Shown here one piece after another: positions 49,070 through 64,000 of a DNA stretch of 64,000 nucleotides (its first letter is position 1; each line of letters begins with the position of its first letter). The notes under the pieces are model-generated. The model was not told the DNA's origin. It saw nothing but the letters and a program-made list of their open reading frames with translations, and did no database searches. The DNA comes from Acidobacteriota bacterium. Its GTDB lineage: Bacteria; Acidobacteriota; Thermoanaerobaculia; Multivoradales; J023. The stretch spans positions 690-64,689 of the forward strand of contig JAJCXO010000206.1 of the NCBI GenBank assembly GCA_029263395.1, written 5' to 3'. Made by a program: the position numbers and the translations under genes.

Positions 49070-49795
49070 CTACCGGACGATGATCTCCTCGCCGAGTTCG
49101 ACGCGACCACCCGCCTCGAGCACGGCGCCACAATCGGCGTCGAGATCACCGGCCGGTGCTGGCAACCGGTTCGGCGATTGTAAAACAACCGGCTGGTAAC
49201 GTCCGATCCCCTCGGTAGCCGCTCGCAGGCTCAGTCGTCCCTCAATGGAGACACAGTCCGAGGAGCTGGTCTCCTCGCTCACACCCGTCTCCGCGGGTAG
49301 ACAACGAGCCACCAGCTGCCGGTCGTTAAGATAGAGACGCAGTTCGAGATGTTGATCGGGATCACCTTCGGCGTCGAGGACCAGGACATCACCGGGGCGT
49401 GCAGTCTGCCCACGGAAGGCGACTGTACTGTGCTCGACGCGAGTGGCGAGACTGAGCTCCGGCGGTTCGCTCCACCGGGGACTGAAAATAGCCATTGCCA
49501 ACCCAGCAGCGGCAGCCAACGAGGCGACCGGCCACCAACCACGACTGGACGTCAGGGGTGATACCTGCGGCGCGTCCAGTCTTCGATCCCGGATCCGTCG
49601 TCGCACTTGCTGCTGCCAATCGGCAGCGGGCTCTTCAGCCTTCCCCAATTCGGCAAGGTCTCGCATGAGCGTTTCGTAGGCTGCCCGCTGCTCCACACAG
49701 TCAGGACAGGAGACAAAGTGGCCGGTCAGCGACAGTCCGGATTCCAATCGTTCAAGGCCTTCGCTCTCGAACCGTCGACAAGGGCTCACGCTCAT
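49070..49795 (-). CDS. zf-HC2-type transmembrane anti-sigma factor
   Basis: HFVSCPDC, TM WWPVASLAAAAGLAMAIF, extracytoplasmic beta domain; ATGA overlap with sigma. Confidence 0.75.
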   Translation of the reverse strand: MSVSPCRRFESEGLERLESGLSLTGHFVSCPDCVEQRAAYETLMRDLAELGKAEEPAADWQQQVRRRIRDRRLDAPQVSPLTSSRGWWPVASLAAAAGLAMAIFSPRWSEPPELSLATRVEHSTVAFRGQTARPGDVLVLDAEGDPDQHLELRLYLNDRQLVARCLPAETGVSEETSSSDCVSIEGRLSLRAATEGIGRYQPVVLQSPNRLPAPAGDLDADCGAVLEAGGRVELGEEIIVR

Positions 49796-50565
49796 GGTGT
49801 GGCTCCTTTGGACTCCAGGCAGTGGCGGAGCGCCGGCAGGGCTCGCACCACGCGAGCCCGCAGGGCCGGTGGGCGTTCATCTGCCACCCGCGCCATCTCG
49901 ACATAGGACAAGCCTTGCTGGAATCGCAGCAGGATCGCATCGCGCACTCTTGGCCCGAGTGCGGCTAGACAGTCGGCCAACGCTGCCAAATGGCTGCGGG
50001 CGGAAAGCTGATCGTCTTGGGGTGGCAATGGAGACGGCCGCTCGGGCAACCGATCGGTGAGCTGGAAACGTCGATCCCGACGACGGCGAATCTTGACGGC
50101 GTCGAGACTACGATGGCGAGCGATGCCAAACAACCAAGTCCGCAGGGAAGAGTGCCCACGAAACCCCTCGAGACCATCATAGGCCTGGATGAACGTGGTC
50201 TGATGGACCTCTTCCGCCAATTCAGCATCACCTACCAAGTGTCGACAGTAGCGGTAGACGGCGGTCCCGAAGGTGTCCATCAACACCTCCAGAGCGCAGT
50301 CGAGATCGCCTCGGGCGATGGCCTGGCGAACGAGGGTTTCAGGCCTGTCGAGTGCGCGGTCAGGCTCAGGCTCGTCCAGCCGATCGCTGGTGCCGGGTGA
50401 GAGCACCCGGCTGGGATACCGGACCACAGCTGGCGATGGCCTCGAGTCGGGTTCCAACCCACTGCTCGACTTCGAGACCGTCTTGGGCGTGGAGACTGCG
50501 TTAGGCGTGGAGACCGTGCTAGGCATCGGACCGCTGCTAGGCAGCACTGGCTCAAATGTTCTCAC
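49792..50565 (-). CDS. ECF RNA polymerase sigma factor
   Basis: AEEVHQTTFIQAY, SSLRTWLFGIARHR, GLSYVEMA. Confidence 0.88.
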   Translation of the reverse strand: MRTFEPVLPSSGPMPSTVSTPNAVSTPKTVSKSSSGLEPDSRPSPAVVRYPSRVLSPGTSDRLDEPEPDRALDRPETLVRQAIARGDLDCALEVLMDTFGTAVYRYCRHLVGDAELAEEVHQTTFIQAYDGLEGFRGHSSLRTWLFGIARHRSLDAVKIRRRRDRRFQLTDRLPERPSPLPPQDDQLSARSHLAALADCLAALGPRVRDAILLRFQQGLSYVEMARVADERPPALRARVVRALPALRHCLESKGATP

Positions 50566-50673
50566 GTGGTATCCCTTGAACCGTTCACTGCTGGAGATTT
50601 GGACCGCCAGCCCCTTAGGAACGTCGTTACTTCATGAGGCGACGCTGGCCGCTCAAAACGAACAGGTCGAGCC

Positions 50674-51162
50674 TCAAGGGATTGGGTCGACTGGATCAAC
50701 CCCCGGCAAGATCGCCTGGATATAGGGGTTCGGCAGCGGCGGGCGAATCGGGAAACAGCCTGCTGGGAGCTCCGCACAGGGCAGGAAGACACCGTCTTCG
50801 AACTGGGCAATCGGTACCATGCGATAGAAGGTCATGGCTTCGACTGAGGTGAGATCCAACTCGACGGTTTCGGGGGTTTGTAGGAGTTCACTGTCGCCGA
50901 GCTCTAACCATGCATTGGGATCGGTCAAAGAAGCAAAGCCGATGTAGGCCGCATCGGGGCCGCCGACCGAAATCTTCAATTGCTGGTCGGTTTGCTGCCA
51001 GGTGAAGAATCCACCTTCGCCACCCGAACTGTCGGTGGGATCATCGGACGGTGCTGCGATGGCGACCTGGGGCGACCAGCCGAGCTGACCGAGAGTCAAA
51101 CCAGCGCCGAAAATCGTCAGCGCGGCACAAACTATGAGGGATAGACCAAACCAGTGTTTCAT
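50674..51162 (-). CDS. Small exported or membrane-anchored hypothetical protein with Pro-rich tail
   Basis: AGGAG RBS, signal-like N-terminus, C-terminal PCAELPAGCFPIRPPLPNP. Confidence 0.7.
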   Translation of the reverse strand: MKHWFGLSLIVCAALTIFGAGLTLGQLGWSPQVAIAAPSDDPTDSSGGEGGFFTWQQTDQQLKISVGGPDAAYIGFASLTDPNAWLELGDSELLQTPETVELDLTSVEAMTFYRMVPIAQFEDGVFLPCAELPAGCFPIRPPLPNPYIQAILPGVDPVDPIP

Positions 51163-51222
51163 GAGGTACTCCTAGGTTGAGTTGAGGTTTTGGCAACAGG
51201 TAGTGTTCACTGCATCGAAGTT

Positions 51223-53748
51223 TCACGGAGCCAACGGTGTCGACTGGTTGAGGCTTGTCGGTCTTGGCCGATCGGCGAACAACCCCAGGACCACAAATGG
51301 CGCCCAGGTGGCAACCGGCTGCCCGACAGCGATGAGCTCACGTTGGGCGCTGGCCAGGGCAAAGACCGGGTCCTCGAGCCCGCCGTGGCGATAGAACGCA
51401 AGCGCAACGGCTTCAGCATCAGCATCGGGAACCGACACCAACGACGCCACCACGGCTTCGCTGCCAGCGGCGAGAAATACCGCACCGAGGGAGCCCCACA
51501 GCTCACGCCCTGGGCGCGCTGCCGAGGCGCAGGTTGCCAACACAGTGAGGCGCGGGGCACGAGTCTTGGCCAGCAGGACATCTGCCGCCAACGGCCCGTC
51601 AGCGAGTGCGATCCATGGTCCACCAGGGCCGAGGCCGGTGTGGGTTGCGAGATGCAACACGGCGGGCCGAGTCGACTCGTGCCAAAGGCCCTGCTCTGCA
51701 GCATCGCCGAGCCAAGGTGTCGACCCGACGAGCTCGGCAACCGCAATCGCCTCGGAACGCGCCCGCGGTAGATCACCCAGCGGATCGCCAAGCACCAACG
51801 GCGGGCCGACCTCGCCCCTGGGCCGCTCCAGCAACGCGGCCAGCGCCTCCAGGCTCGGCACGTACGTCACCGGATGGCGCTCGACCAGATATCGCCCGTC
51901 GATTCGCAACGCGGCAAACGGTAAACGACCGAGGGCACCATCGGTCACGATCATCAAAGGCTCGTCAGCTCCCGGAAGCCCGCTCGTCGGCAAGACTTGG
52001 GCACCCAATTGTGCCGCCAGTTGGTGGTCGTCCAAGTTGGCGAGAAATGTATCCACAGTGGCCTCGATATCCGCCGAGTCACCGAGTCGACGCCAGGATC
52101 CCGCGACGCCACTCAAAACCCATAGTGCGCCATCAGCTTCGAAATAGCTCAACACCGACCTATGCCGCAGGTTGTGGCGCAACTCGCCCACCGGCCGCGG
52201 TTCGGGTGACGGCGCGGCAGCAACCGCTGGCAACAACCCTTCGAGCACCCGCAAGCGTTCCAGCGCGGCGGCGCCAACATCGACTCGCTCCGGATCGGAG
52301 AACTTCGGTACCGTCTCGCTATCGGCCACCGTCTTGCTATCGGCCACCGTCTTGCCATGGTCTACCGTCGCATCGAGACCTCGGACAAAGGCGTCGAGAA
52401 AGGTGCGCGCCCGCGCTCGCTCGACGATCGCCAGTGCCTCGTCGGAGCGCCCTTGATGCAACAGTAACAGAAAAAGCGCTTCGAAGGTCTGTCTCTTCTT
52501 CTCGAGCAACCACGGCTTGAGGGTGTCGAGGGCGAGCGCACGACGCATCGCTTCGACCTCGACGATAGCGGCCCGATATGCAGCCTCAGCGGCAACAAGG
52601 TTACCCCGGGCCTCCTCCACTCTCCCCAGCAGCTGTTGCAAGGTCCAGATCCAGTCTGTCACTGGCGAGGCGACGAGCGCCGTTGCCAGATCCCGGGCGG
52701 CTGCGTCCCAGCGCCCTTCCTGATGAGCCAACCGAGCACGATAATAAAGTAGCGAGGTCGGCAGACGCCGATCTTGGCCGGGGCTCTGATCATGAAGACC
52801 CTGATCACCACGGCCCTGATCACCGAGACTATGATCCGCCGCGTGTTCGAAGGCGGCATCCAAATGGAAGTGAGCCCGCTCCAACGCTCCACGTCGTAAA
52901 GCGATCTCGACCAGGTTCAGGTGGGTCGAGCGGAAAAGCTGGCTGCCGAGCTCCACGCTGCTTTGATCGGAGCTCTCAGCCGCAACCTCGAGCGCCCGCA
53001 AGGTAGCATCGCGGGCGAGCGACAACCGCCCACTGTCGAGCCACAAGTCGCCTTCGTGCGCCAACAAGAAGGCATCATCCTGCGGACTGTCGGCGGCCAA
53101 CCCCTCACGCAGCTGCTGCACCGCGCGGGCACTGTCCAGGTCACCAACTGCGGACAACACCCCCTGCTGCATCTCGACGGCCAACTTCTCTACCCGTGCG
53201 TCGCCTTCGCGACGTGCCACCACCGCGGAGTCCAAGGCATAGGCGAGTGCTGACCGATACTGCGTCTGGCTCCATTCGAGGTAGGCCAAGAGGTACAGCG
53301 TCCAAGCCTCTTTGGATGCCTCGGCTGAAACTGGTTGCAGGCTGCCAGAGGTTTCGACCGTCAAGCGCTCGAGTTCAAGCGCTCGTTCGAGGGCCGTGCG
53401 AGCAGCCGTGATCTCCTTTCGATCACGCCAGATGCTGGACGCCAGGCGTAACACTTCAGCATGCTGTCGGGTACCCGCCAAACGTCCGGACCAAGCCAGA
53501 ACTTCGTCGAGGTGGCCCAGCTCGAGCTGAGAGCGGGCCGCCCCCAACCCGGCCTTGGCATCACCCTCAGCAGCAAACGCAGCAGCACAAACCTCGGCCG
53601 CTTTGGAAGGGTCTCCGGCCTGCAACAAGGCCTCACACGAGCGCTGGCCAGGATGACAACCGAGCACAGCACACCCTGCCATCAGCACCAAACCGCCGGC
53701 TGAGGACCAGGGACGCCGAAGCAAAAGTGAGGGATTCATCGCAACCAT
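51223..53748 (-). CDS. TPR-CHAT domain (caspase-like) lipoprotein
   Basis: Lipobox VLGC, TPR-like helices, ERARARTFLD, DGALGRLPFAAL, LHLATH (His), VLATCAS (Cys), VVASL..V.D, WAPFVVLG. Confidence 0.88.
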   Translation of the reverse strand: MVAMNPSLLLRRPWSSAGGLVLMAGCAVLGCHPGQRSCEALLQAGDPSKAAEVCAAAFAAEGDAKAGLGAARSQLELGHLDEVLAWSGRLAGTRQHAEVLRLASSIWRDRKEITAARTALERALELERLTVETSGSLQPVSAEASKEAWTLYLLAYLEWSQTQYRSALAYALDSAVVARREGDARVEKLAVEMQQGVLSAVGDLDSARAVQQLREGLAADSPQDDAFLLAHEGDLWLDSGRLSLARDATLRALEVAAESSDQSSVELGSQLFRSTHLNLVEIALRRGALERAHFHLDAAFEHAADHSLGDQGRGDQGLHDQSPGQDRRLPTSLLYYRARLAHQEGRWDAAARDLATALVASPVTDWIWTLQQLLGRVEEARGNLVAAEAAYRAAIVEVEAMRRALALDTLKPWLLEKKRQTFEALFLLLLHQGRSDEALAIVERARARTFLDAFVRGLDATVDHGKTVADSKTVADSETVPKFSDPERVDVGAAALERLRVLEGLLPAVAAAPSPEPRPVGELRHNLRHRSVLSYFEADGALWVLSGVAGSWRRLGDSADIEATVDTFLANLDDHQLAAQLGAQVLPTSGLPGADEPLMIVTDGALGRLPFAALRIDGRYLVERHPVTYVPSLEALAALLERPRGEVGPPLVLGDPLGDLPRARSEAIAVAELVGSTPWLGDAAEQGLWHESTRPAVLHLATHTGLGPGGPWIALADGPLAADVLLAKTRAPRLTVLATCASAARPGRELWGSLGAVFLAAGSEAVVASLVSVPDADAEAVALAFYRHGGLEDPVFALASAQRELIAVGQPVATWAPFVVLGLFADRPRPTSLNQSTPLAP

Positions 53749-54357
53749 TCGATTAATAGTTAAGGGAGGGACAGTTCGGACTTAGCCGGTCCACTATGAA
53801 ACGATCGTGGACCACTCACCTAGGAAGACGGTCTTCACCTAGGAAGACTCTGCAACCGTCCGAATTGTCCCACCCACGTTGATCTTTTTTCGTCGTTATC
53901 GTCTGGGGGCTGGATGTCTGCACGAATCTTCCGGCCGCCAACCACCGGATATGATCCGACTCTCGAGCAACGTTTAGAAGCGGCAAACCATGGATGCAGT
54001 CCATCCAGCAGGGCCGACTCAGCACCTCTACGGTCGCCACAAGGGGCCCCGTTGCCAGATGAGCTTCAACAGCGCCTGATCCCAGGATCGACGATCTACT
54101 GGCGAATCGTCGAGCGGGCTGAGCTCGAACGCCGGGAGTCGGCGCTGTTTCGCTTTCAGCTCGCAGCCGAGAGCCCCTCGCATCCTTGACTCGCCCGGCC
54201 ACCTGCCTAGCTTTGGCGTTGATGCTGGTTGCGCCTCGCCAAGCTTGACACGCTGGCCAACATAACCACCCGTCATCCCGCCAACTGGGCCGCCTTCGTC
54301 TTGATCATCCAATGTAGAATAGGCTAGCAGCACAATGGTCTCGACAAGGTCGTGCCT

Positions 54358-54693
54358 ATGCCTAGTGACGCCCAATCGATACATCCCACACTACCTGGTG
54401 ATCTGCGGCCCCTCTTTTGGGACTACGATTTTCAAGATCTGTGCTGGGACGATGATCGAGCCCTGATCATCCGTCGAGTTTTGACCTCGGGCCCTTGGGA
54501 CAGCGTGCAATGGCTGCGTTCCAGAGTGAATGATGACACGCTGGGACGCTGGATCATCGACCACCAGGGCCGCGGGTTGAGTCCACAGCAACTTCGTTTT
54601 TGGCAATTGATCCTCGATCTACCGACCGAGCAGGTTGATGGGTGGCTGGCTGACCGGCAAACCGATCCCTGGCATCACCGACAGGCCTCATGA
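54358..54693 (+). CDS. DUF6922-like antitoxin partner
   Basis: PLFWDYD, IIRRVL..G.W..V.WL, LRFWQLIL; overlaps the next gene (ATGA). Confidence 0.7.
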   Translation: MPSDAQSIHPTLPGDLRPLFWDYDFQDLCWDDDRALIIRRVLTSGPWDSVQWLRSRVNDDTLGRWIIDHQGRGLSPQQLRFWQLILDLPTEQVDGWLADRQTDPWHHRQAS

Positions 54694-55337
54694 CGTTTCA
54701 CTCCGAGGTCCTAACGACACCTCAGATCCACGCTCTTCACGCGATGGGACCGGCCATGACAACCGGTCACTTTTATCTTGCTGGAGGCACCGCCCTGGCC
54801 ATCATCCTCGGGCACCGCCTGTCGGTTGACCTCGACTGGTTCACCCGTAAACGATTTGCAGATCCGATGCGTTTAGCCGCCGAGCTGCGAGATGACGGAA
54901 TCCAGCTAAAGACAACACGGGTGGAACGCGGCACTCTGCATGGCCATATCGACGATGTGCGGGTCAGTCTGCTCGAATATCGCTATCCATTGCTAGCTCC
55001 CGTCATCGTATGGAGCGAGCATCAATGTGCACTCGTCTCGCTCGACGATATCGCTTGCATGAAGCTGTCTGCGATCAGTCAACGCGGAGCCAGGAAAGAC
55101 TTCGTCGACCTCTACGCACTCGTCCAACGGCACCGACCGCTGGATGAGCTTCTGAAGCTGTACCAAAAGAAATACGACACGACAGATATCGGACATGTTC
55201 TAGTGTCCTTAGCCTACTTTGACGACGCCGAGCGAGAGCGGATGCCAAAGATGCTTTGGGATGTGAGCTGGCAGGATCTCAAGACTCAGATCCAGAGGTG
55301 GGTGCTGGACCTAGCGCTGCCCCCTGTGTCTGGGTAG
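54690..55337 (+). CDS. AbiEii/AbiGii family nucleotidyltransferase toxin
   Basis: FYLAGGTALA..LGHRLSVDLDWF, IACMKLSAI.QRG.RKDFVDLY. Confidence 0.88.
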   Translation: MTFHSEVLTTPQIHALHAMGPAMTTGHFYLAGGTALAIILGHRLSVDLDWFTRKRFADPMRLAAELRDDGIQLKTTRVERGTLHGHIDDVRVSLLEYRYPLLAPVIVWSEHQCALVSLDDIACMKLSAISQRGARKDFVDLYALVQRHRPLDELLKLYQKKYDTTDIGHVLVSLAYFDDAERERMPKMLWDVSWQDLKTQIQRWVLDLALPPVSG

Positions 55338-58705: not shown

Positions 58706-60484
58706 CTAAGCAGCGGCGTCGGGCAACGCCGTATCGGGATGTGCACCCGACATGATGCGCCAACTGGTCACCTTCTCGTCGATCTCACGCATGCGTTTAC
58801 AGATCAACCGACAAAGCAGCATCATGAAGCTGCGCGCAGCCCGCGGATCCATCGCCATGATCTCGTTCAGGGTCTGGTCGTCAAAGGTCACAACAGTGAC
58901 CGGCCCCTGAAACGCCTTGGCATCGGCTGAACGCGGCTCTCCGTCGATCAACGACATCTCGCCGAAGAAATCTCCACGGTCGAGGATCGCCAGTGCTTCT
59001 TCACCACCGCCGGGGATGAACTTGCTGATCATCACCTGGCCTTCGAGCACCACATACATCTCGTGGCCCTCGTCTCCCTCACGGAACAAGAATGTACCGC
59101 TCGGATAACGTTTGACGTTGGAGAAGTTGGCCAGGGTCTCGAGCTCCGCTCCGCTGAGACCTTGCTCGCGAAAGAGCTCGATCTTATCGTCGGCTCCGAC
59201 GTCCACCGCACCGGTCTCGGCTTGACTTTGGCGCAATTCCTGAAGGTCTTCGGTCGAGTTCTCCTCTACGAAAAAAGTCCGCAGCTGTTCGTTGGCGCTC
59301 CGTAGCTTTTGCGCCAGACCGTGCCAGAAGCCCCAGAAAACCTGGACGCCCAAATCGGGATGCTGATCGAGCACTGTTTCGAGCTGGGTGGGGTCGAGAC
59401 GGACCAACTCGCAGCCTTGGCCCGCCACGGCATCGCCGGTCCGCTCACCGGGTAGGATGAAGTTGATCTCACCGAAGACGTCACCCGGGCCCAGACTGCC
59501 GAGCGGATAGCTACCGTAGGACGTCTGTCGCCGGATCACCACGGTACCCTTCTCGACAATGTAGATATCGGCATCGGAGCTGCCGAAGGAGAAAATCTCC
59601 GCGCCCTTTTCGAAATGCTCCTCGTGGGCCGCCAAGGTGAGATGAAAAACCTGCTCGTCGTCTAGATGAGACCAGGCTTCGATCTTGCGCATCCGCCGGG
59701 CGAGCTCCAGACGGCCACTCTGCGGCCTGGCTGGCGCCTTGACAGGGATCTTTCGGGTAGCGTCCTCGTCGCGCAGGAACCGCTCACGCTGCAGCTCCAG
59801 GCGGTCGAAGGCGGTCTGCAGCTTTTCTCGACGCTCCCGAAACAACTGCACCAGATCCGCACTGGAGATCTTGCGAATCGTTTTCAGAGTCCGGATCCGC
59901 TTCTTTAGATGTTTGCCCTTTTCGCGATCGTCGTCCTGTAACAACAAGAAGGCATCGATCGTCGCTTCGATTGCCTCCCGGTAATGCTCGCGCTCGTACT
60001 CGACGCGCCCTAGCAGATCGGCGATCTCGCGATCGAACGGATTGTAGCGCTGAGCGCGGCGTAGCTCGCGACCTGCTTCGTCATACCGCTTGTCGCGAAA
60101 CATCAACTTGCCGTTGAGCTTGTGAACGTAAGGATTGGCCATTTCCTTACTGCTGGCGATTTGCAGACATTCAGCAGCAAGATCTGGCTTGCCGCGCTCT
60201 TCGTAGAGAGCGGCCAAGCCGAAGAAATGGGCCGAGTCGATCGCGTTACGCCGCAGACGCTCTCGCAGCGCCTGCTCCGCATCACGCGTCGAGTCGCCCA
60301 GGCTCTGGCGTCGGTGTTTGCGCACCTCAGCTAAATTGAGCTGGATGCCCATATTGTTGGGCGCAAAACGCTGGGCAAGCTGAAACAGCTCGTCCGCTTC
60401 GTCGTACATGTCGCCATCAGCGAAACGCTTGGCAAGCGACGTGAGGAGCTCCAGATCCACCGGAGGCTTCTTCGAAATGGACAT
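58706..60484 (-). CDS. TPR protein with two cyclic-nucleotide-binding domains
   Basis: N-terminal TPRs; GDVFGEINFILPGERTGDA and GDFFGEMSLIDGEPRSADA cNMP motifs. Confidence 0.85.
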   Translation of the reverse strand: MSISKKPPVDLELLTSLAKRFADGDMYDEADELFQLAQRFAPNNMGIQLNLAEVRKHRRQSLGDSTRDAEQALRERLRRNAIDSAHFFGLAALYEERGKPDLAAECLQIASSKEMANPYVHKLNGKLMFRDKRYDEAGRELRRAQRYNPFDREIADLLGRVEYEREHYREAIEATIDAFLLLQDDDREKGKHLKKRIRTLKTIRKISSADLVQLFRERREKLQTAFDRLELQRERFLRDEDATRKIPVKAPARPQSGRLELARRMRKIEAWSHLDDEQVFHLTLAAHEEHFEKGAEIFSFGSSDADIYIVEKGTVVIRRQTSYGSYPLGSLGPGDVFGEINFILPGERTGDAVAGQGCELVRLDPTQLETVLDQHPDLGVQVFWGFWHGLAQKLRSANEQLRTFFVEENSTEDLQELRQSQAETGAVDVGADDKIELFREQGLSGAELETLANFSNVKRYPSGTFLFREGDEGHEMYVVLEGQVMISKFIPGGGEEALAILDRGDFFGEMSLIDGEPRSADAKAFQGPVTVVTFDDQTLNEIMAMDPRAARSFMMLLCRLICKRMREIDEKVTSWRIMSGAHPDTALPDAAA

Positions 60485-60724
60485 CGGACCTTATAGTTTA
60501 GCATGAGCCCTCCGACCCTCCGCAAGATTCACTCCGCAGCTGGCCAGCTGAGCAATCCGTCGGATCTCTGACAATGGTGGTACTTAGCTTTCTATGGCTA
60601 TTCCACTATGATTGCCATATTCTGACCCGGCTTGGTAGTCGAGTTCGATCAAACACAGGCGCTGGGCAACACCGTAGCGCGGTCCCCACCGTCGGTTCCT
60701 CCTGATCTCATTGTCGAAAACGCC

Positions 60725-61201
60725 ATGACAGCCAACACGAGTGAGCCGCTAGAGGTCGCCTTGAAGGGTATCGAGCTCTGTCGCCAAGGCGACTGGAACG
60801 AGGGCCTTTATTGGCTGAGCCAAGCAGCGGCGGGTGAAGGCAAAGGGCACGAGTTGCCGGCTCTCTTCTACTCGTACTTCGGCTACGCAATCGCCAAGAA
60901 GCAAGACCAGGTGGCCCACGGGCTCAGGCTCTGCAAACGAGCCGTGGAGCTCGAGCTCTACCAGCCTGAGAGTTATTACTTCTTGGCTCGGACCCATTTT
61001 CTGGACGGCGATCGGAGGGCCGCCTTTAAGGTTGTCGAGCGCGGACTGCGGATCGACTCGACCCATGCCGACTTGCTCGAGCTCAAATCAAAGCTCGGTC
61101 GACGCCGTAAGCCCGTGATCTCGTGGTTGGCGCGGCGGCACCCGGTCAACCGCTTTTTGGGCAGGGTTCGGCATCGGCTGCTCGGTTCGAAGCACCGCTG
61201 A
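60725..61201 (+). CDS. Small TPR protein
   Basis: TPR-like helices (LCKRAVELELYQPESYYFLAR), basic tail (RRHPVNRFLGR). Confidence 0.75.
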   Translation: MTANTSEPLEVALKGIELCRQGDWNEGLYWLSQAAAGEGKGHELPALFYSYFGYAIAKKQDQVAHGLRLCKRAVELELYQPESYYFLARTHFLDGDRRAAFKVVERGLRIDSTHADLLELKSKLGRRRKPVISWLARRHPVNRFLGRVRHRLLGSKHR

Positions 61202-61386: not shown

Positions 61387-63861
61387 GTGATCATGAAAAA
61401 GACTACCCGCGATAGCTCCAAACGACGCAAGACCTTGACCGTCATCTGTTCCAAGGGTGCCCGCCAGCGGTTCTTGCGCGGCATGATCACGCACGATCTT
61501 GTACAGCGTGGATTGAGCTTCGACGACGGCTATGCCGCAGCCCATGCTATTCGTGACCGCCTTGCTGAGCGTGAGGAAGTGACGACCTCTGAGATTCGAG
61601 ACATGATCCAAGAGCATTTGGAGAGCACTCTTGGTTCCGACCTGCCAGCACGGCTGCGCCGACCGATGCGGAGGGAGCCGCAACATTTCGTGCTCAAGGA
61701 CGGCAAGAAGCAGCCTTTCTCTCGTGGCCTATTGGCTCGCAGTATGTACGCTGCAGGCCTCGACCTCGAGCGTGCTTATCGACTGGTAGCAGAGCTTGAG
61801 AAAGAGTTGCAAAAGACCGACTCCACCGTATCCACCAGTTCAGACATCGCTCGTCAAACCGCGGAGATCTTGGAACGCCTGGAAGGTGACGAGATCGCGC
61901 AGAGGTACCGTTTGGTACGTCGCATCCACCGACTCCCCAGACCCCTAGTGATCTACGTCGGCGGGGCCAGTGGAACAGGTAAGTCTACGGTAGCTCTCGA
62001 GCTGGCTCCCCTATTGCGCATCTACCGTGTCACCTCCACTGACACCATCCGCCAGATGATGCGGATGGTTTTCTCGCCCACTATTCTGCCTGCACTTTAT
62101 AGTTCCAGCTTCGAAGTTGCGCCGGCCTTCGGCGATGGTTCGATCCCGGACGACTACCACGTGTCGGCCCAAGATCCTGAGTTTATTCAGCGCCTGACAT
62201 CAACTTTCGAGGAGCAGTCGACCCGGGTGTGTGTCGGAGTCCGGGCGGTGGTCGAACGTGCCATTGCCGAGAACATGAGCATCTTGGTGGAGGGTGTCCA
62301 CCTGTGTCCGCCGTTGGTGCCGTTCAGCGATCTCGAAGGCGCCGCCTATCAAGTTCCGATGATGATGACGATTCCTGACGTCGAGGTCCATCGCTCGCGC
62401 TTCCTCAATCGCGCTCGACTCGGCGGCCGTCGAGCCGAACGTTATGTCGAGAATTTCGAAGCGATCCGCATGGTGCACGACTTTGTGCTGCAACAAGCCG
62501 AAACGCATGATGTCCCGCTCCTCGATACGTCCTTCGATGATCCGCCCGTCGTCCAAAGCTTGCGTTTAGTCACAAGCTTGCTACAAGAGCGGCTGCCGGC
62601 GCTGGCGCAGGCTGGCTGGCATACAGCTAAACCAATCACCCCGACACTGCTGCTGGTAATTGATGGTCTAGCGGATCGGCCGGTGCGCGCTCTCGGTGGG
62701 CGAACACCCCTACAGGCTGCCGAAACGCCCCATCTCGATCGACTGGCGGCGGAGGGCCAAAGCGGTTTGGCGGATCCGATAGCTCCGGGGGTGGTACCCG
62801 ACACCGCGGCGGGTACGCTGGCGCTCTTCGGTCAGTCACCCCTCGCTCTCAAACGCGGTCCGGTAGAAGCGCTAGGTGCGGATTTCGAGCTCAATGTTGG
62901 CGATATCGCGTTGCGTGGCAACTTCGCCACGTTGGGCGACAACAATCAAATCATCGACCGTCGGGCCGGACGGATCCGCGGACAAACCGACAAGCTAGCA
63001 AAAGCAATCGACCGCCTACCGCTGCCTGGCAGTCTTGGTCGTGAGGTGGAGATACGAGTCAGGGCGGCGACCGAGCATCGCCTGGCGATCGTGATGCGAG
63101 GCGACGGCCTATCGTCGAATATTCAAGGTTCGGACCCTGGTGATGGCGCCGCGGCCGGGCCGGCTCTAACACCGCGACCGAACGAGCCCAACGACGAACG
63201 GGCGGTCGAGACCGCACGGATCCTGGCGCTTTTCGAACAGAAGGCGCGCAAGGTGCTGGCCAAGCACCCGATCAACCTAGCCCGCAAGGCCGAAGGGCTG
63301 CCGCTCGCCAATATCGTACTGACCCGAGGCGCTGGCAGGATCCATCATCTTGTACCGCTCGAAGAAGCTGGGATTCCGCTCAAATTGGCATGTATCGGTG
63401 GTGACCGAACAGTACTTGGCCTGGCCAAGCTCCTCGGCGCCAGAACGGTGAGTCGCGACGGCATGACGGCGAATCTCGACACCAACTTGGATGCCAAGTT
63501 CGATGCTGCCTTGCGCGCACTGAAACGCGACGATCTGGTGATTGTCCACGTCAAGGGAGCTGATATCGCGGCCCACGATCAACGGCCCGATCTCAAAGCC
63601 GCCTTCTTGGAGAAGGTCGATCGTGCGCTAGGAGCCTTTCTCGAACGCCATACCGACGATTTCCGGGTCGCGGTAGCAGCGGATCACGCAACCTTGTCTG
63701 AGAGTGGGCAACACGCCGCCGATCCGCTGCCGGTGTTGGTGTGGGGTCCAGGTATCGAACCCGACTCGGTGATGAGCTACGACGAAACGGCAGCAGCGGC
63801 TGGCGCTTTGCAGCAATTTCCTTTACAACTACTACTCGAACGCTTATTCGACCTCAGCTGA
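61387..63861 (+). CDS. Fusion of two ATP-cones, 2-phosphoglycerate kinase-like P-loop domain and ApgM-type cofactor-independent phosphoglycerate mutase
   Basis: F.RG ATP-cones (RFLRGMIT, PFSRGLLARS), GGASGTGKST, STDTIRQMMR, EGVHL; then IDGLADRP..LGGRTPL, ALRGNFAT, DRRAGR, HVKGADIAAHD, ADHAT, HAADPLP. Confidence 0.85.
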   Translation: MIMKKTTRDSSKRRKTLTVICSKGARQRFLRGMITHDLVQRGLSFDDGYAAAHAIRDRLAEREEVTTSEIRDMIQEHLESTLGSDLPARLRRPMRREPQHFVLKDGKKQPFSRGLLARSMYAAGLDLERAYRLVAELEKELQKTDSTVSTSSDIARQTAEILERLEGDEIAQRYRLVRRIHRLPRPLVIYVGGASGTGKSTVALELAPLLRIYRVTSTDTIRQMMRMVFSPTILPALYSSSFEVAPAFGDGSIPDDYHVSAQDPEFIQRLTSTFEEQSTRVCVGVRAVVERAIAENMSILVEGVHLCPPLVPFSDLEGAAYQVPMMMTIPDVEVHRSRFLNRARLGGRRAERYVENFEAIRMVHDFVLQQAETHDVPLLDTSFDDPPVVQSLRLVTSLLQERLPALAQAGWHTAKPITPTLLLVIDGLADRPVRALGGRTPLQAAETPHLDRLAAEGQSGLADPIAPGVVPDTAAGTLALFGQSPLALKRGPVEALGADFELNVGDIALRGNFATLGDNNQIIDRRAGRIRGQTDKLAKAIDRLPLPGSLGREVEIRVRAATEHRLAIVMRGDGLSSNIQGSDPGDGAAAGPALTPRPNEPNDERAVETARILALFEQKARKVLAKHPINLARKAEGLPLANIVLTRGAGRIHHLVPLEEAGIPLKLACIGGDRTVLGLAKLLGARTVSRDGMTANLDTNLDAKFDAALRALKRDDLVIVHVKGADIAAHDQRPDLKAAFLEKVDRALGAFLERHTDDFRVAVAADHATLSESGQHAADPLPVLVWGPGIEPDSVMSYDETAAAAGALQQFPLQLLLERLFDLS

Positions 63862-63871
63862 ACCTGCAAAG

Positions 63872-64000
63872 ATGAACGAGTCGGCCATCGCTCCTCCGCT
63901 TGCTGTTGAACCAGCCCCAGCAGCCCCCACTGTTGGCCTCGACGTGCCGCGAGTCCTGGGGTGTGTCGAAGGGACCGAGCCCGGCCCCATTCTGATCGTT
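63872..64000 (+). CDS. Probable succinylglutamate desuccinylase/aspartoacylase (M14) family protein, partial
   Basis: Manual translation ...PRVLGCVEGTEPGPILIV, which typically precedes the HGNE motif; cut by the window edge. Confidence 0.5.
   Translation, partial: MNESAIAPPLAVEPAPAAPTVGLDVPRVLGCVEGTEPGPILIV

Follow-up and report, generated by a model that had tools for sequence, protein, structure and literature searches.

2-Phosphoglycerate (2-PG) kinase (2-PGK) is known as the first enzyme in the synthesis of cyclic 2,3-diphosphoglycerate (cDPG), yet it is widespread without cDPG synthetase, the product of cpgS. In earlier reports, 2-PGK is noted without the synthetase in mesophilic Class I methanogens, where another function is suggested for it (PMC2686161); 2-PGK and the ApgM family of phosphoglycerate mutases are both listed among the archaeal-like genes of Thermus and Deinococcus (PMC1274311); and the plant 2-PGK homolog Lpa1 is described as affecting seed phosphate storage (PMC6417671). 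For cDPG, PMC1224877 describes fast turnover and a possible role as a store of carbon and phosphate, with hydrolysis to 3-phosphoglycerate (3-PG) returning phosphate. Here, we analyse a gene of an Acidobacteriota bacterium in which the two families meet in a single open reading frame (ORF). The gene lies in a stretch of 64 000 nucleotides from contig JAJCXO010000206.1 (hereafter the window) and encodes two ATP-cones, a 2-PGK-like P-loop domain and an ApgM domain with threonine as the predicted nucleophile in the place of the canonical serine. The literature covered, in titles and abstracts and with most subscription papers outside its scope, contains no description of this fusion or of a threonine-type (Thr-type) ApgM.

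The fusion is a real single gene, and its ApgM half belongs to a separate clade of Thr-type enzymes that is tied to the kinase. These observations lead us to propose that the protein may be a bifunctional kinase/phosphatase of 2,3-bisphosphoglycerate (2,3-BPG), an assignment to which we give slightly less than an even chance of being correct.

The fused gene and its parts

The reading frame contains no internal stop codon (Table 1). Its likely start is the ATG at 61393, two codons into the frame, which gives a protein of 822 residues and is also where the database entry and the homologs nearest to it begin. The best 120 of 463 database matches consist of the protein itself and 119 fused homologs (62–88% identity), whose source names, where present, are mostly Acidobacteriota or Thermoanaerobaculia, and the ESM Atlas holds an automatically named cluster of 258 members with the same architecture. 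A match over both halves without an internal stop was found in 31 of 41 genomes (the bacterium's own and those of its relatives), and contigs from two sequencing runs of one study, the second from another sample, bridge the junction with no differences. The single fused ORF given in a preliminary description of the window is thereby confirmed, and a frameshift or assembly artefact at the junction, which that description had allowed for, is ruled out by the fused homologs, the intact genes in the relatives and the junction-crossing contigs. In one relative (G037, C2:841259-843674) the N-terminus of the fusion lies in a separate piece, owing to gene decay or to an assembly error. No match to a sigma-70 promoter was found upstream of the gene.

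The proposed architecture of ATP-cone, 2-PGK-like P-loop domain and mutase is supported by both Pfam and NCBIfam. The ApgM half matches the Pfam families PhosphMutase (residues 454–630) and Metalloenzyme (residues 419–808) and passes the apgM cut-off of TIGR00306 (residues 421–817, score 331.4 against 320). The kinase half matches the two NCBIfam 2-PGK families below their cut-offs (NF008994 at residues 20–405, 270.8 bits against 603; NF003259 at residues 104–380, 256.8 against 343) and has the features of 2-PGK family members, namely an ATP-cone followed by a P-loop domain, a Walker A motif, an EG-type Walker B motif (LVEG) and the family motifs. As to the two ATP-cones originally claimed, the second is the only one that passes the Pfam threshold independently; the first is suggested by the NF008994 match and by an AlphaFold model of the fusion (mean predicted local distance difference test score, pLDDT, 75; predicted template-modelling score 0.60), in which it has the same hairpin and three-helix pattern as ATP-cones. 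A Foldseek search with this model placed the solved ApgM structures 3idd, 3kd8 and 2zkt at the top, followed by adenylate-kinase-like kinases, and gave a weak match to ribonucleotide reductase (5im3; E = 8.5e-4).

Table 1. Features of the fused gene and the start of its downstream neighbour, in window positions. Residue numbers are counted from the GTG codon.
Feature	Position	Strand	Extent	Evidence or key residues
Fused gene: two ATP-cones, 2-PGK-like kinase, Thr-type ApgM domain	61387..63861	+	824 residues from GTG	
First ATP-cone-like domain	61435..61641	+	residues ~17-85	matched by NF008994 from residue 20; secondary structure in the model
Second ATP-cone	61696..61932	+	residues 104-182	Pfam PF03477, E = 4e-11
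2-PGK-like P-loop domain	61939..62586	+	residues ~185-400	NF003259 and NF008994; adenylate-kinase-like Foldseek matches; alignment
Walker A of the P-loop domain	61960-61986	+		
ApgM-family domain (alkaline-phosphatase superfamily)	62641..63837	+	residues 419-817	metal ligands D426, D726, H730, D766, H767, H776; K723
Thr473 codon	62803..62805	+		predicted nucleophile (Ser in canonical ApgM)
Arg531 codon	62977..62979	+		extra Arg typical of the clade, following the invariant RRAGR loop
Downstream AstE/AspA (M14) gene, start	63872..64000	+	402 residues; extends beyond the window	outside the module

Thr-type ApgM enzymes and their tie to the kinase

The six metal ligands of the ApgM half, which the preliminary description had given as retained, show no variation among 24 aligned fusions. 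Thr473, likewise put forward there as the nucleophile, aligns with the serine of GSDTAH in PDB entry 2zkt and of GSDTSH in 3kd8/3idd and is invariant among the same 24 sequences, which supports its predicted role; the histidine that follows the nucleophile is lost in the fused forms. Divergent fusions, with kinase identities of 34–39%, all have Thr. In an archaeal phylum (five genomes searched) the five best ApgMs all have Ser, with a sixth left unread. In a 67-row ApgM tree, a quick tree in which the nucleophile column was kept and from which five duplicate rows were dropped, all 34 Thr rows fall on one side of a branch with a Shimodaira–Hasegawa-like approximate likelihood-ratio (SH-aLRT) support of 100. 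This clade neighbours archaeal-type Ser ApgMs, and the first to branch within it are enzymes from operons with cpgS together with one split form from Acidobacteriota.

An additional arginine, Arg531, is typical of the clade: it is present in 31 of 34 Thr-type rows of the tree and in none of 30 Ser-type rows (three HomK-like rows were set aside), in 70 of the 72 Thr loci that could be scored and in all 120 proteins formed by the query and its 119 fused homologs. Such a residue would suit a second phosphate group. An alignment of this region onto GpmI with hhalign covered the metal-binding part only. Lys723 is retained in the fusion at a position where HomK-like rows carry Glu; under the Lys-versus-Glu rule for acidic substrates set out in Appendix 3 of a preprint (bioRxiv 10.1101/2024.10.14.618325), the lysine indicates an acidic substrate for the ApgM half.

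The tie to the kinase was analysed in the best 80 of 208 loci from named genomes, which had been found with Thr-type alignment patterns. The nucleophile is Thr in 74 of these loci and Ser in the other six. Fused genes account for 51 of the Thr loci and kinase–ApgM pairs for 13, eight have cpgS directly upstream (seven of these also show the kinase) and two are cut by contig ends. A 2-PG kinase accompanies the Thr-type ApgM in 71 of the 74 loci, the remaining three stopping at a contig edge upstream, and is present at none of the six Ser-type loci. Standalone kinases behave differently: among the 17 of 20 such loci that were read, eight adjoin a Thr-type ApgM (broken in one case and separated by a CBS gene in another), one adjoins cDPG synthetase and eight adjoin neither. 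The Thr-type ApgM thus depends one-way on the kinase, which fits an ApgM half that acts on the product of the kinase. At L077:8711-9942 the Thr-type ApgM gene is in pieces, through gene decay or assembly error.

The link to phosphoglycerate is supported by eight loci at which homologs of the kinase and of the Thr-type ApgM lie beside a true cDPG synthetase. The gene order 2pgk-cpgS-apgM(Thr) is found at L182-184, L186, L187, L189 and L256, and at L185 with the kinase cut off; complete operons lie at L184:3315-7242, L186:1912-6191, L187:200-4254, L189:3411-7845 and L256:3329-7735. The record titles name Ca. Abyssobacteria, Omnitrophota, Coatesbacteria, Poribacteria and unclassified bacteria, and a CBS-domain gene is nearby in eight of nine loci of the operon group; most of the complete operons have it downstream. 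The cpgS query itself matches PDB entry 8ORU (E = 2e-130), and the operon kinase of L184 scores above the NF003259 threshold for 2-PGK (376.6 against 343). Bacteria with complete operons would, judging from their genes, make cDPG. Because the earliest-branching Thr-type ApgMs sit in these operons, the kinase is tied to phosphoglycerate. All five operon genomes tested also have a Ser-type ApgM.

A search of 401 genomes across the phylum gave 27 kinases of the long fused type, 20 standalone kinases and seven weak matches to the cone region only. In the kinase tree three changes are needed to account for the fused state, at least two of them forced by strong branches, and the fusion is likely to have arisen more than once. 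The fused kinases are separate from those of the cpgS operons in this tree, and their nearest relatives found are two-cone kinases of bacterial genomes; the label 'archaeal-type', first given to the kinase, is therefore loose. At 80 metagenome 2-PGK loci, which we take to be Rubrobacter-like, neither a cpgS motif nor an ApgM was found, and a plasmid search gave one partial match from Deinococcus. A protein of 2401 residues (P0334) combines a phosphoenolpyruvate-synthase-like domain (residues ~1126-1434) with 2-PG-kinase-like stretches (residues ~1650-1869).

Metabolic context and proposed function

cDPG synthetase was found in none of the 41 own-plus-relative genomes (the bacterium's own, G000, is 96% complete), and a tblastn search of its own genome gave no match. 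Across the phylum, one of 401 genomes has a true match, the genome from which the query came (G327), and a further eight matches are weak; one of these was read and is a member of a distant family. In G327 (L088:5235-7504) the synthetase adjoins a one-cone 2-PG kinase, and the single ApgM found has Ser. The cDPG route to a compatible solute, suggested in the preliminary description, is not borne out by these counts. The distant cDPG-synthetase-like family occurs in 10 of the 41 genomes, including eight of the 31 with the fusion; it was rejected as a stand-in for the synthetase, being absent from the bacterium's own genome and having two carriers without the fusion. At L173:892-2214 a 440-residue P-loop protein is distantly cDPG-synthetase-like (E = 6e-5 to 9sxb).

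The bacterium's own genome also encodes GpmI, downstream of an ORF that by eye resembles phosphofructokinase (L036:6-2913), an arrangement that fits a glycolytic role. GpmI is present in 17 of the 31 fusion genomes and a second ApgM in 13 others; 12 of these 13 second ApgMs were read (that of G040 was left unread) and all have Ser, one that was tested passing NF003160 and another falling below it. Only G004 (86% complete) has neither enzyme. Since 30 of 31 fusion genomes hold GpmI or a second ApgM, the glycolytic mutase role is likely to be covered without the fusion. A gpmA match over the cut-off was found in one of the 41 genomes, one without the fusion, and PF00300 matches in the bacterium's own genome are short and partial. 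A role of 2,3-BPG as the primer of GpmA is ruled out by the absence of gpmA over the cut-off from all 31 fusion genomes; of the known users of 2,3-BPG, neither cpgS nor gpmA was found in the fusion genomes searched.

We tentatively propose that the P-loop half phosphorylates 2-PG with ATP to give 2,3-BPG, which the operon linkage to cpgS suggests as the likely kinase reaction, and that the Thr-type ApgM half would remove a phosphate from 2,3-BPG via phospho-Thr473, release inorganic phosphate and return a monophosphoglycerate, presumably 3-PG if methanogens are a guide. Three observations favour an ApgM half that uses the product of the kinase over one that supplies its substrate: no Thr-type ApgM was seen apart from the kinase, although kinases do occur by themselves; the Thr-type ApgM coexists with another mutase candidate; and its Thr is fixed and accompanied by an extra Arg. 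Removal of phosphate from 2,3-BPG through phospho-Thr would be the simplest such reaction. Where an operon retains cDPG synthetase, the Thr enzyme would close a store-and-release cycle; in the lineage in which no synthetase was found, the two fused halves would control how much 2,3-BPG is present, as a phosphate or energy store or as a signal, analogous to the control of fructose-2,6-bisphosphate by PFK-2/FBPase-2. The substrates of the two halves, the direction in which the ApgM domain works and a regulatory role, if there is one, are what we infer. A broader scheme, in which Thr-type ApgMs are the 2,3-BPG phosphatases that complete cDPG turnover and repeated fusion has produced a PFKFB-like switch for a 2,3-BPG signal or store, is possible and, in our judgement, doubtful; it would also account for the many microbes in which 2-PG kinase is retained although cDPG synthetase is absent. 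A 2,3-diphosphoglycerate phosphatase activity has reportedly been observed, with no gene assigned to it.

Genes of phosphate metabolism (Na/Pi symporter, PhoU, Pst, PPK1, PPK2, Ppx and CHAD families) occur in 24 of 52 loci of the fused group; among the 33 such loci of at least 10 kb the count is 19, compared with a frequency of 0.9% for random 13.2-kb windows of the bacterium's own genome. These figures are to be read in the light of queries drawn from the same loci, a background of one genome and non-independent kin. None was found at the six Ser-type loci, and some kinase-only loci (L078, L085 and L086) also adjoin such genes.

Apart from these limits on the phosphate-gene counts, several observations weigh against a kinase/phosphatase. 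No phosphate genes surround the fusion in this window, and they occur at none of nine operon-group loci and one of 13 split loci. Selection of the 80 loci by Thr-type patterns left a small Ser control (n = 6). The kinase is alone in eight genomes, six without an ApgM match and two with a 40%-identical ApgM lacking Arg531; breakdown can then proceed by other means. The fused kinase falls under both 2-PGK cut-offs, whereas the ApgM half passes that for apgM and the operon Thr enzyme of L184 scores over the cut-off of the mutase equivalog NF003104 (498.8 against 489). Every tabulated conserved ApgM arginine is retained, which makes plain mutase activity still possible. Arg531 is not exclusive to the clade, being carried by the Ser-type L316 and missing from three Thr rows, and the AlphaFold model is poor near the nucleophile (pLDDT below 50 at residues 427–468). 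A kinase and a phosphatase on one chain would also risk a futile cycle of ATP. In the ATP-cone regulators RNR and NrdR, nucleotide is bound by an N-terminal KRDG-type motif. This motif is unconserved in both cones across 24 fusions, and the ATP-cone regulation claimed in the preliminary description is therefore unsupported; other cone positions are highly conserved, and the cones may possibly serve another ligand or an interface.

The competing explanation that survives best, itself somewhat unlikely, is that the ApgM half is a supply mutase, turning 3-PG into 2-PG for the kinase so that 2,3-BPG is made from 3-PG. Mutase activity is the default function of the ApgM family, 3-PG exceeds 2-PG at equilibrium, and the domain passes TIGR00306 and has retained its metal ligands, arginines and Lys723; the Thr-type ApgM sits in an operon for cDPG synthesis, and one-way dependence on the kinase would suit a dedicated supplier too. 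Moreover, in four of five operon genomes the sole other ApgM-type mutase candidate found, HomK-like proteins aside, is a divergent Ser-type enzyme, and GpmI is found in none of the five. This role, which had been assigned to the ApgM half at first, is nevertheless weakened by the GpmI of the bacterium's own genome and the other mutase candidates in 30 of 31 fusion genomes: the Thr enzyme is never the sole candidate among the well-assembled fusion genomes searched. Nor does a supplier account for the switch from Ser to Thr, for Arg531 or for the loss of the histidine after the nucleophile in fused forms, and the cpgS and gpmA searches disclosed no downstream use of 2,3-BPG.

Less probable is a phosphotransferase or mutase primed by 2,3-BPG, in which the product of the kinase would load phospho-Thr473 and the phosphate would pass to an acceptor other than water. 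Phosphopentomutase offers a likeness, as its Thr is primed by a sugar bisphosphate, and the ApgM relatives HomK and PhpG (the latter by its family name) act as transferases; a primed enzyme would account at once for the Thr, for Arg531, for the need of the kinase and for the lack of cpgS. However, no conserved neighbour among the loci examined hints at a phosphoryl acceptor, a phosphoglycerate mutase primed in this way would be redundant with GpmI or the Ser-type ApgM, and kinases kept alone would go unexplained. We consider it more improbable still that both halves of the fused lineage have moved away from phosphoglycerate to another phospho-hydroxy acid. The sub-threshold scores of the fused kinases and their distance from the cpgS-operon kinases in the tree would agree with such a shift, and the kinase family includes mevalonate-3-phosphate 5-kinase as well as plant Lpa1, whose substrate is unsettled (PMC6417671); against it, kinase and Thr-type ApgM can be followed as a pair, with no break, to the operons that contain a true cDPG synthetase, and the tabulated substrate residues of ApgM are identical in operon and fused forms. 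That the Thr-type ApgM is a cDPG hydrolase opening the cyclic pyrophosphate, here left over or acting on imported cDPG, seems very improbable: its gene follows cpgS in the operons and NPP enzymes, which have a Thr nucleophile (PMC11677397), cleave anhydrides, yet the domain is kept at 62–88% identity and fused to the kinase in a lineage without detectable cpgS (0 of 41 genomes), where even the distant cpgS-like family reaches only eight of 31 fusion genomes, the bacterium's own not included.

If the kinase/phosphatase assignment is correct, the protein would represent an undescribed on/off switch for 2,3-BPG, likely tied to phosphate housekeeping. A free bacterial pool of 2,3-BPG linked to phosphate genes would parallel the effect of Lpa1 in plants, as described in PMC6417671. 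The uncharacterised Thr-type clade accompanies the kinase in cDPG operons and in the fusion of most relatives searched; this association offers one protein with which to follow what becomes of 2,3-BPG, and also a candidate for the part of cDPG metabolism that degrades the compound. The fusion proteins are annotated as plain glycolytic mutases in their source names, which calls for caution.

Neighbouring genes and comparison with known systems

The gene downstream of the fusion belongs to the AstE/AspA family (PF24827; E = 2e-16), as its earlier identification as an M14 deacylase had anticipated. It follows the fusion in five of 21 and three of 52 loci, and on these counts was rejected as a functional partner. 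Upstream genes for TPR, cyclic-nucleotide-binding TPR and M29 proteins recur in three to nine of 21 loci, reflecting lineage synteny only; in the window they include a TPR protein with two cyclic-nucleotide-binding domains (58706-60484, minus strand; nine of 21 loci) and a small TPR protein (60632-61201, plus strand; eight of 21). By eye, a small ORF overlapping one of 215 residues resembles an AbiEii-type nucleotidyltransferase pair (54352-55337, plus strand), and an ORF like an extracytoplasmic function sigma factor lies near an 841-residue TPR protein with an apparent CHAT (caspase-like) end (49792-53748, minus strand).

With the 2-PGK and cDPG pathway of Methanothermus fervidus (8ORK/8ORU; PMC10690619; PMC12136491), the fusion shares the ATP-cone, the P-loop domain and the family motifs, and its homologs lie beside a true cDPG synthetase in eight operon loci and in G327. 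It differs in having two cones, an ApgM domain and scores below the 2-PGK cut-offs, and no synthetase was found in its own genome or in 40 relatives. With ApgM (TIGR00306; 2zkt, 3idd and 3kd8) it has in common the fold, the metal ligands, the conserved arginines, Lys723 and a score over the cut-off; the Thr nucleophile, the extra Arg531, the lost histidine and membership of a separate, kinase-tied clade set it apart.

The eukaryotic PFK-2/FBPase-2 (PFKFB) joins an adenylate-kinase-like kinase to a phosphoglycerate-mutase-like domain around one bisphosphate. The likeness to the fusion may be seen as an analogy of design, a kinase fused to a mutase-like domain with one bisphosphate between them; the phosphatase of PFKFB is a histidine phosphatase and not of the alkaline-phosphatase fold, the metabolite is another, and we do not suggest that the phosphatase half is homologous. 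HomK (TIGR02535) and PhpG (NF038358) share the fold and both transfer phosphoryl groups, so an ApgM-like protein need not be a mutase. The fusion scores far under their cut-offs (201.5 against 446.3 for HomK) and has Lys723 where HomK has Glu, the equivalence to E299 being taken from HomK-like rows.

Judged by its sequence, the fusion would work like a 2-PG kinase joined to a phospho-enzyme of the ApgM fold, rather than as a complete cDPG pathway, a Ser-type ApgM or a HomK.

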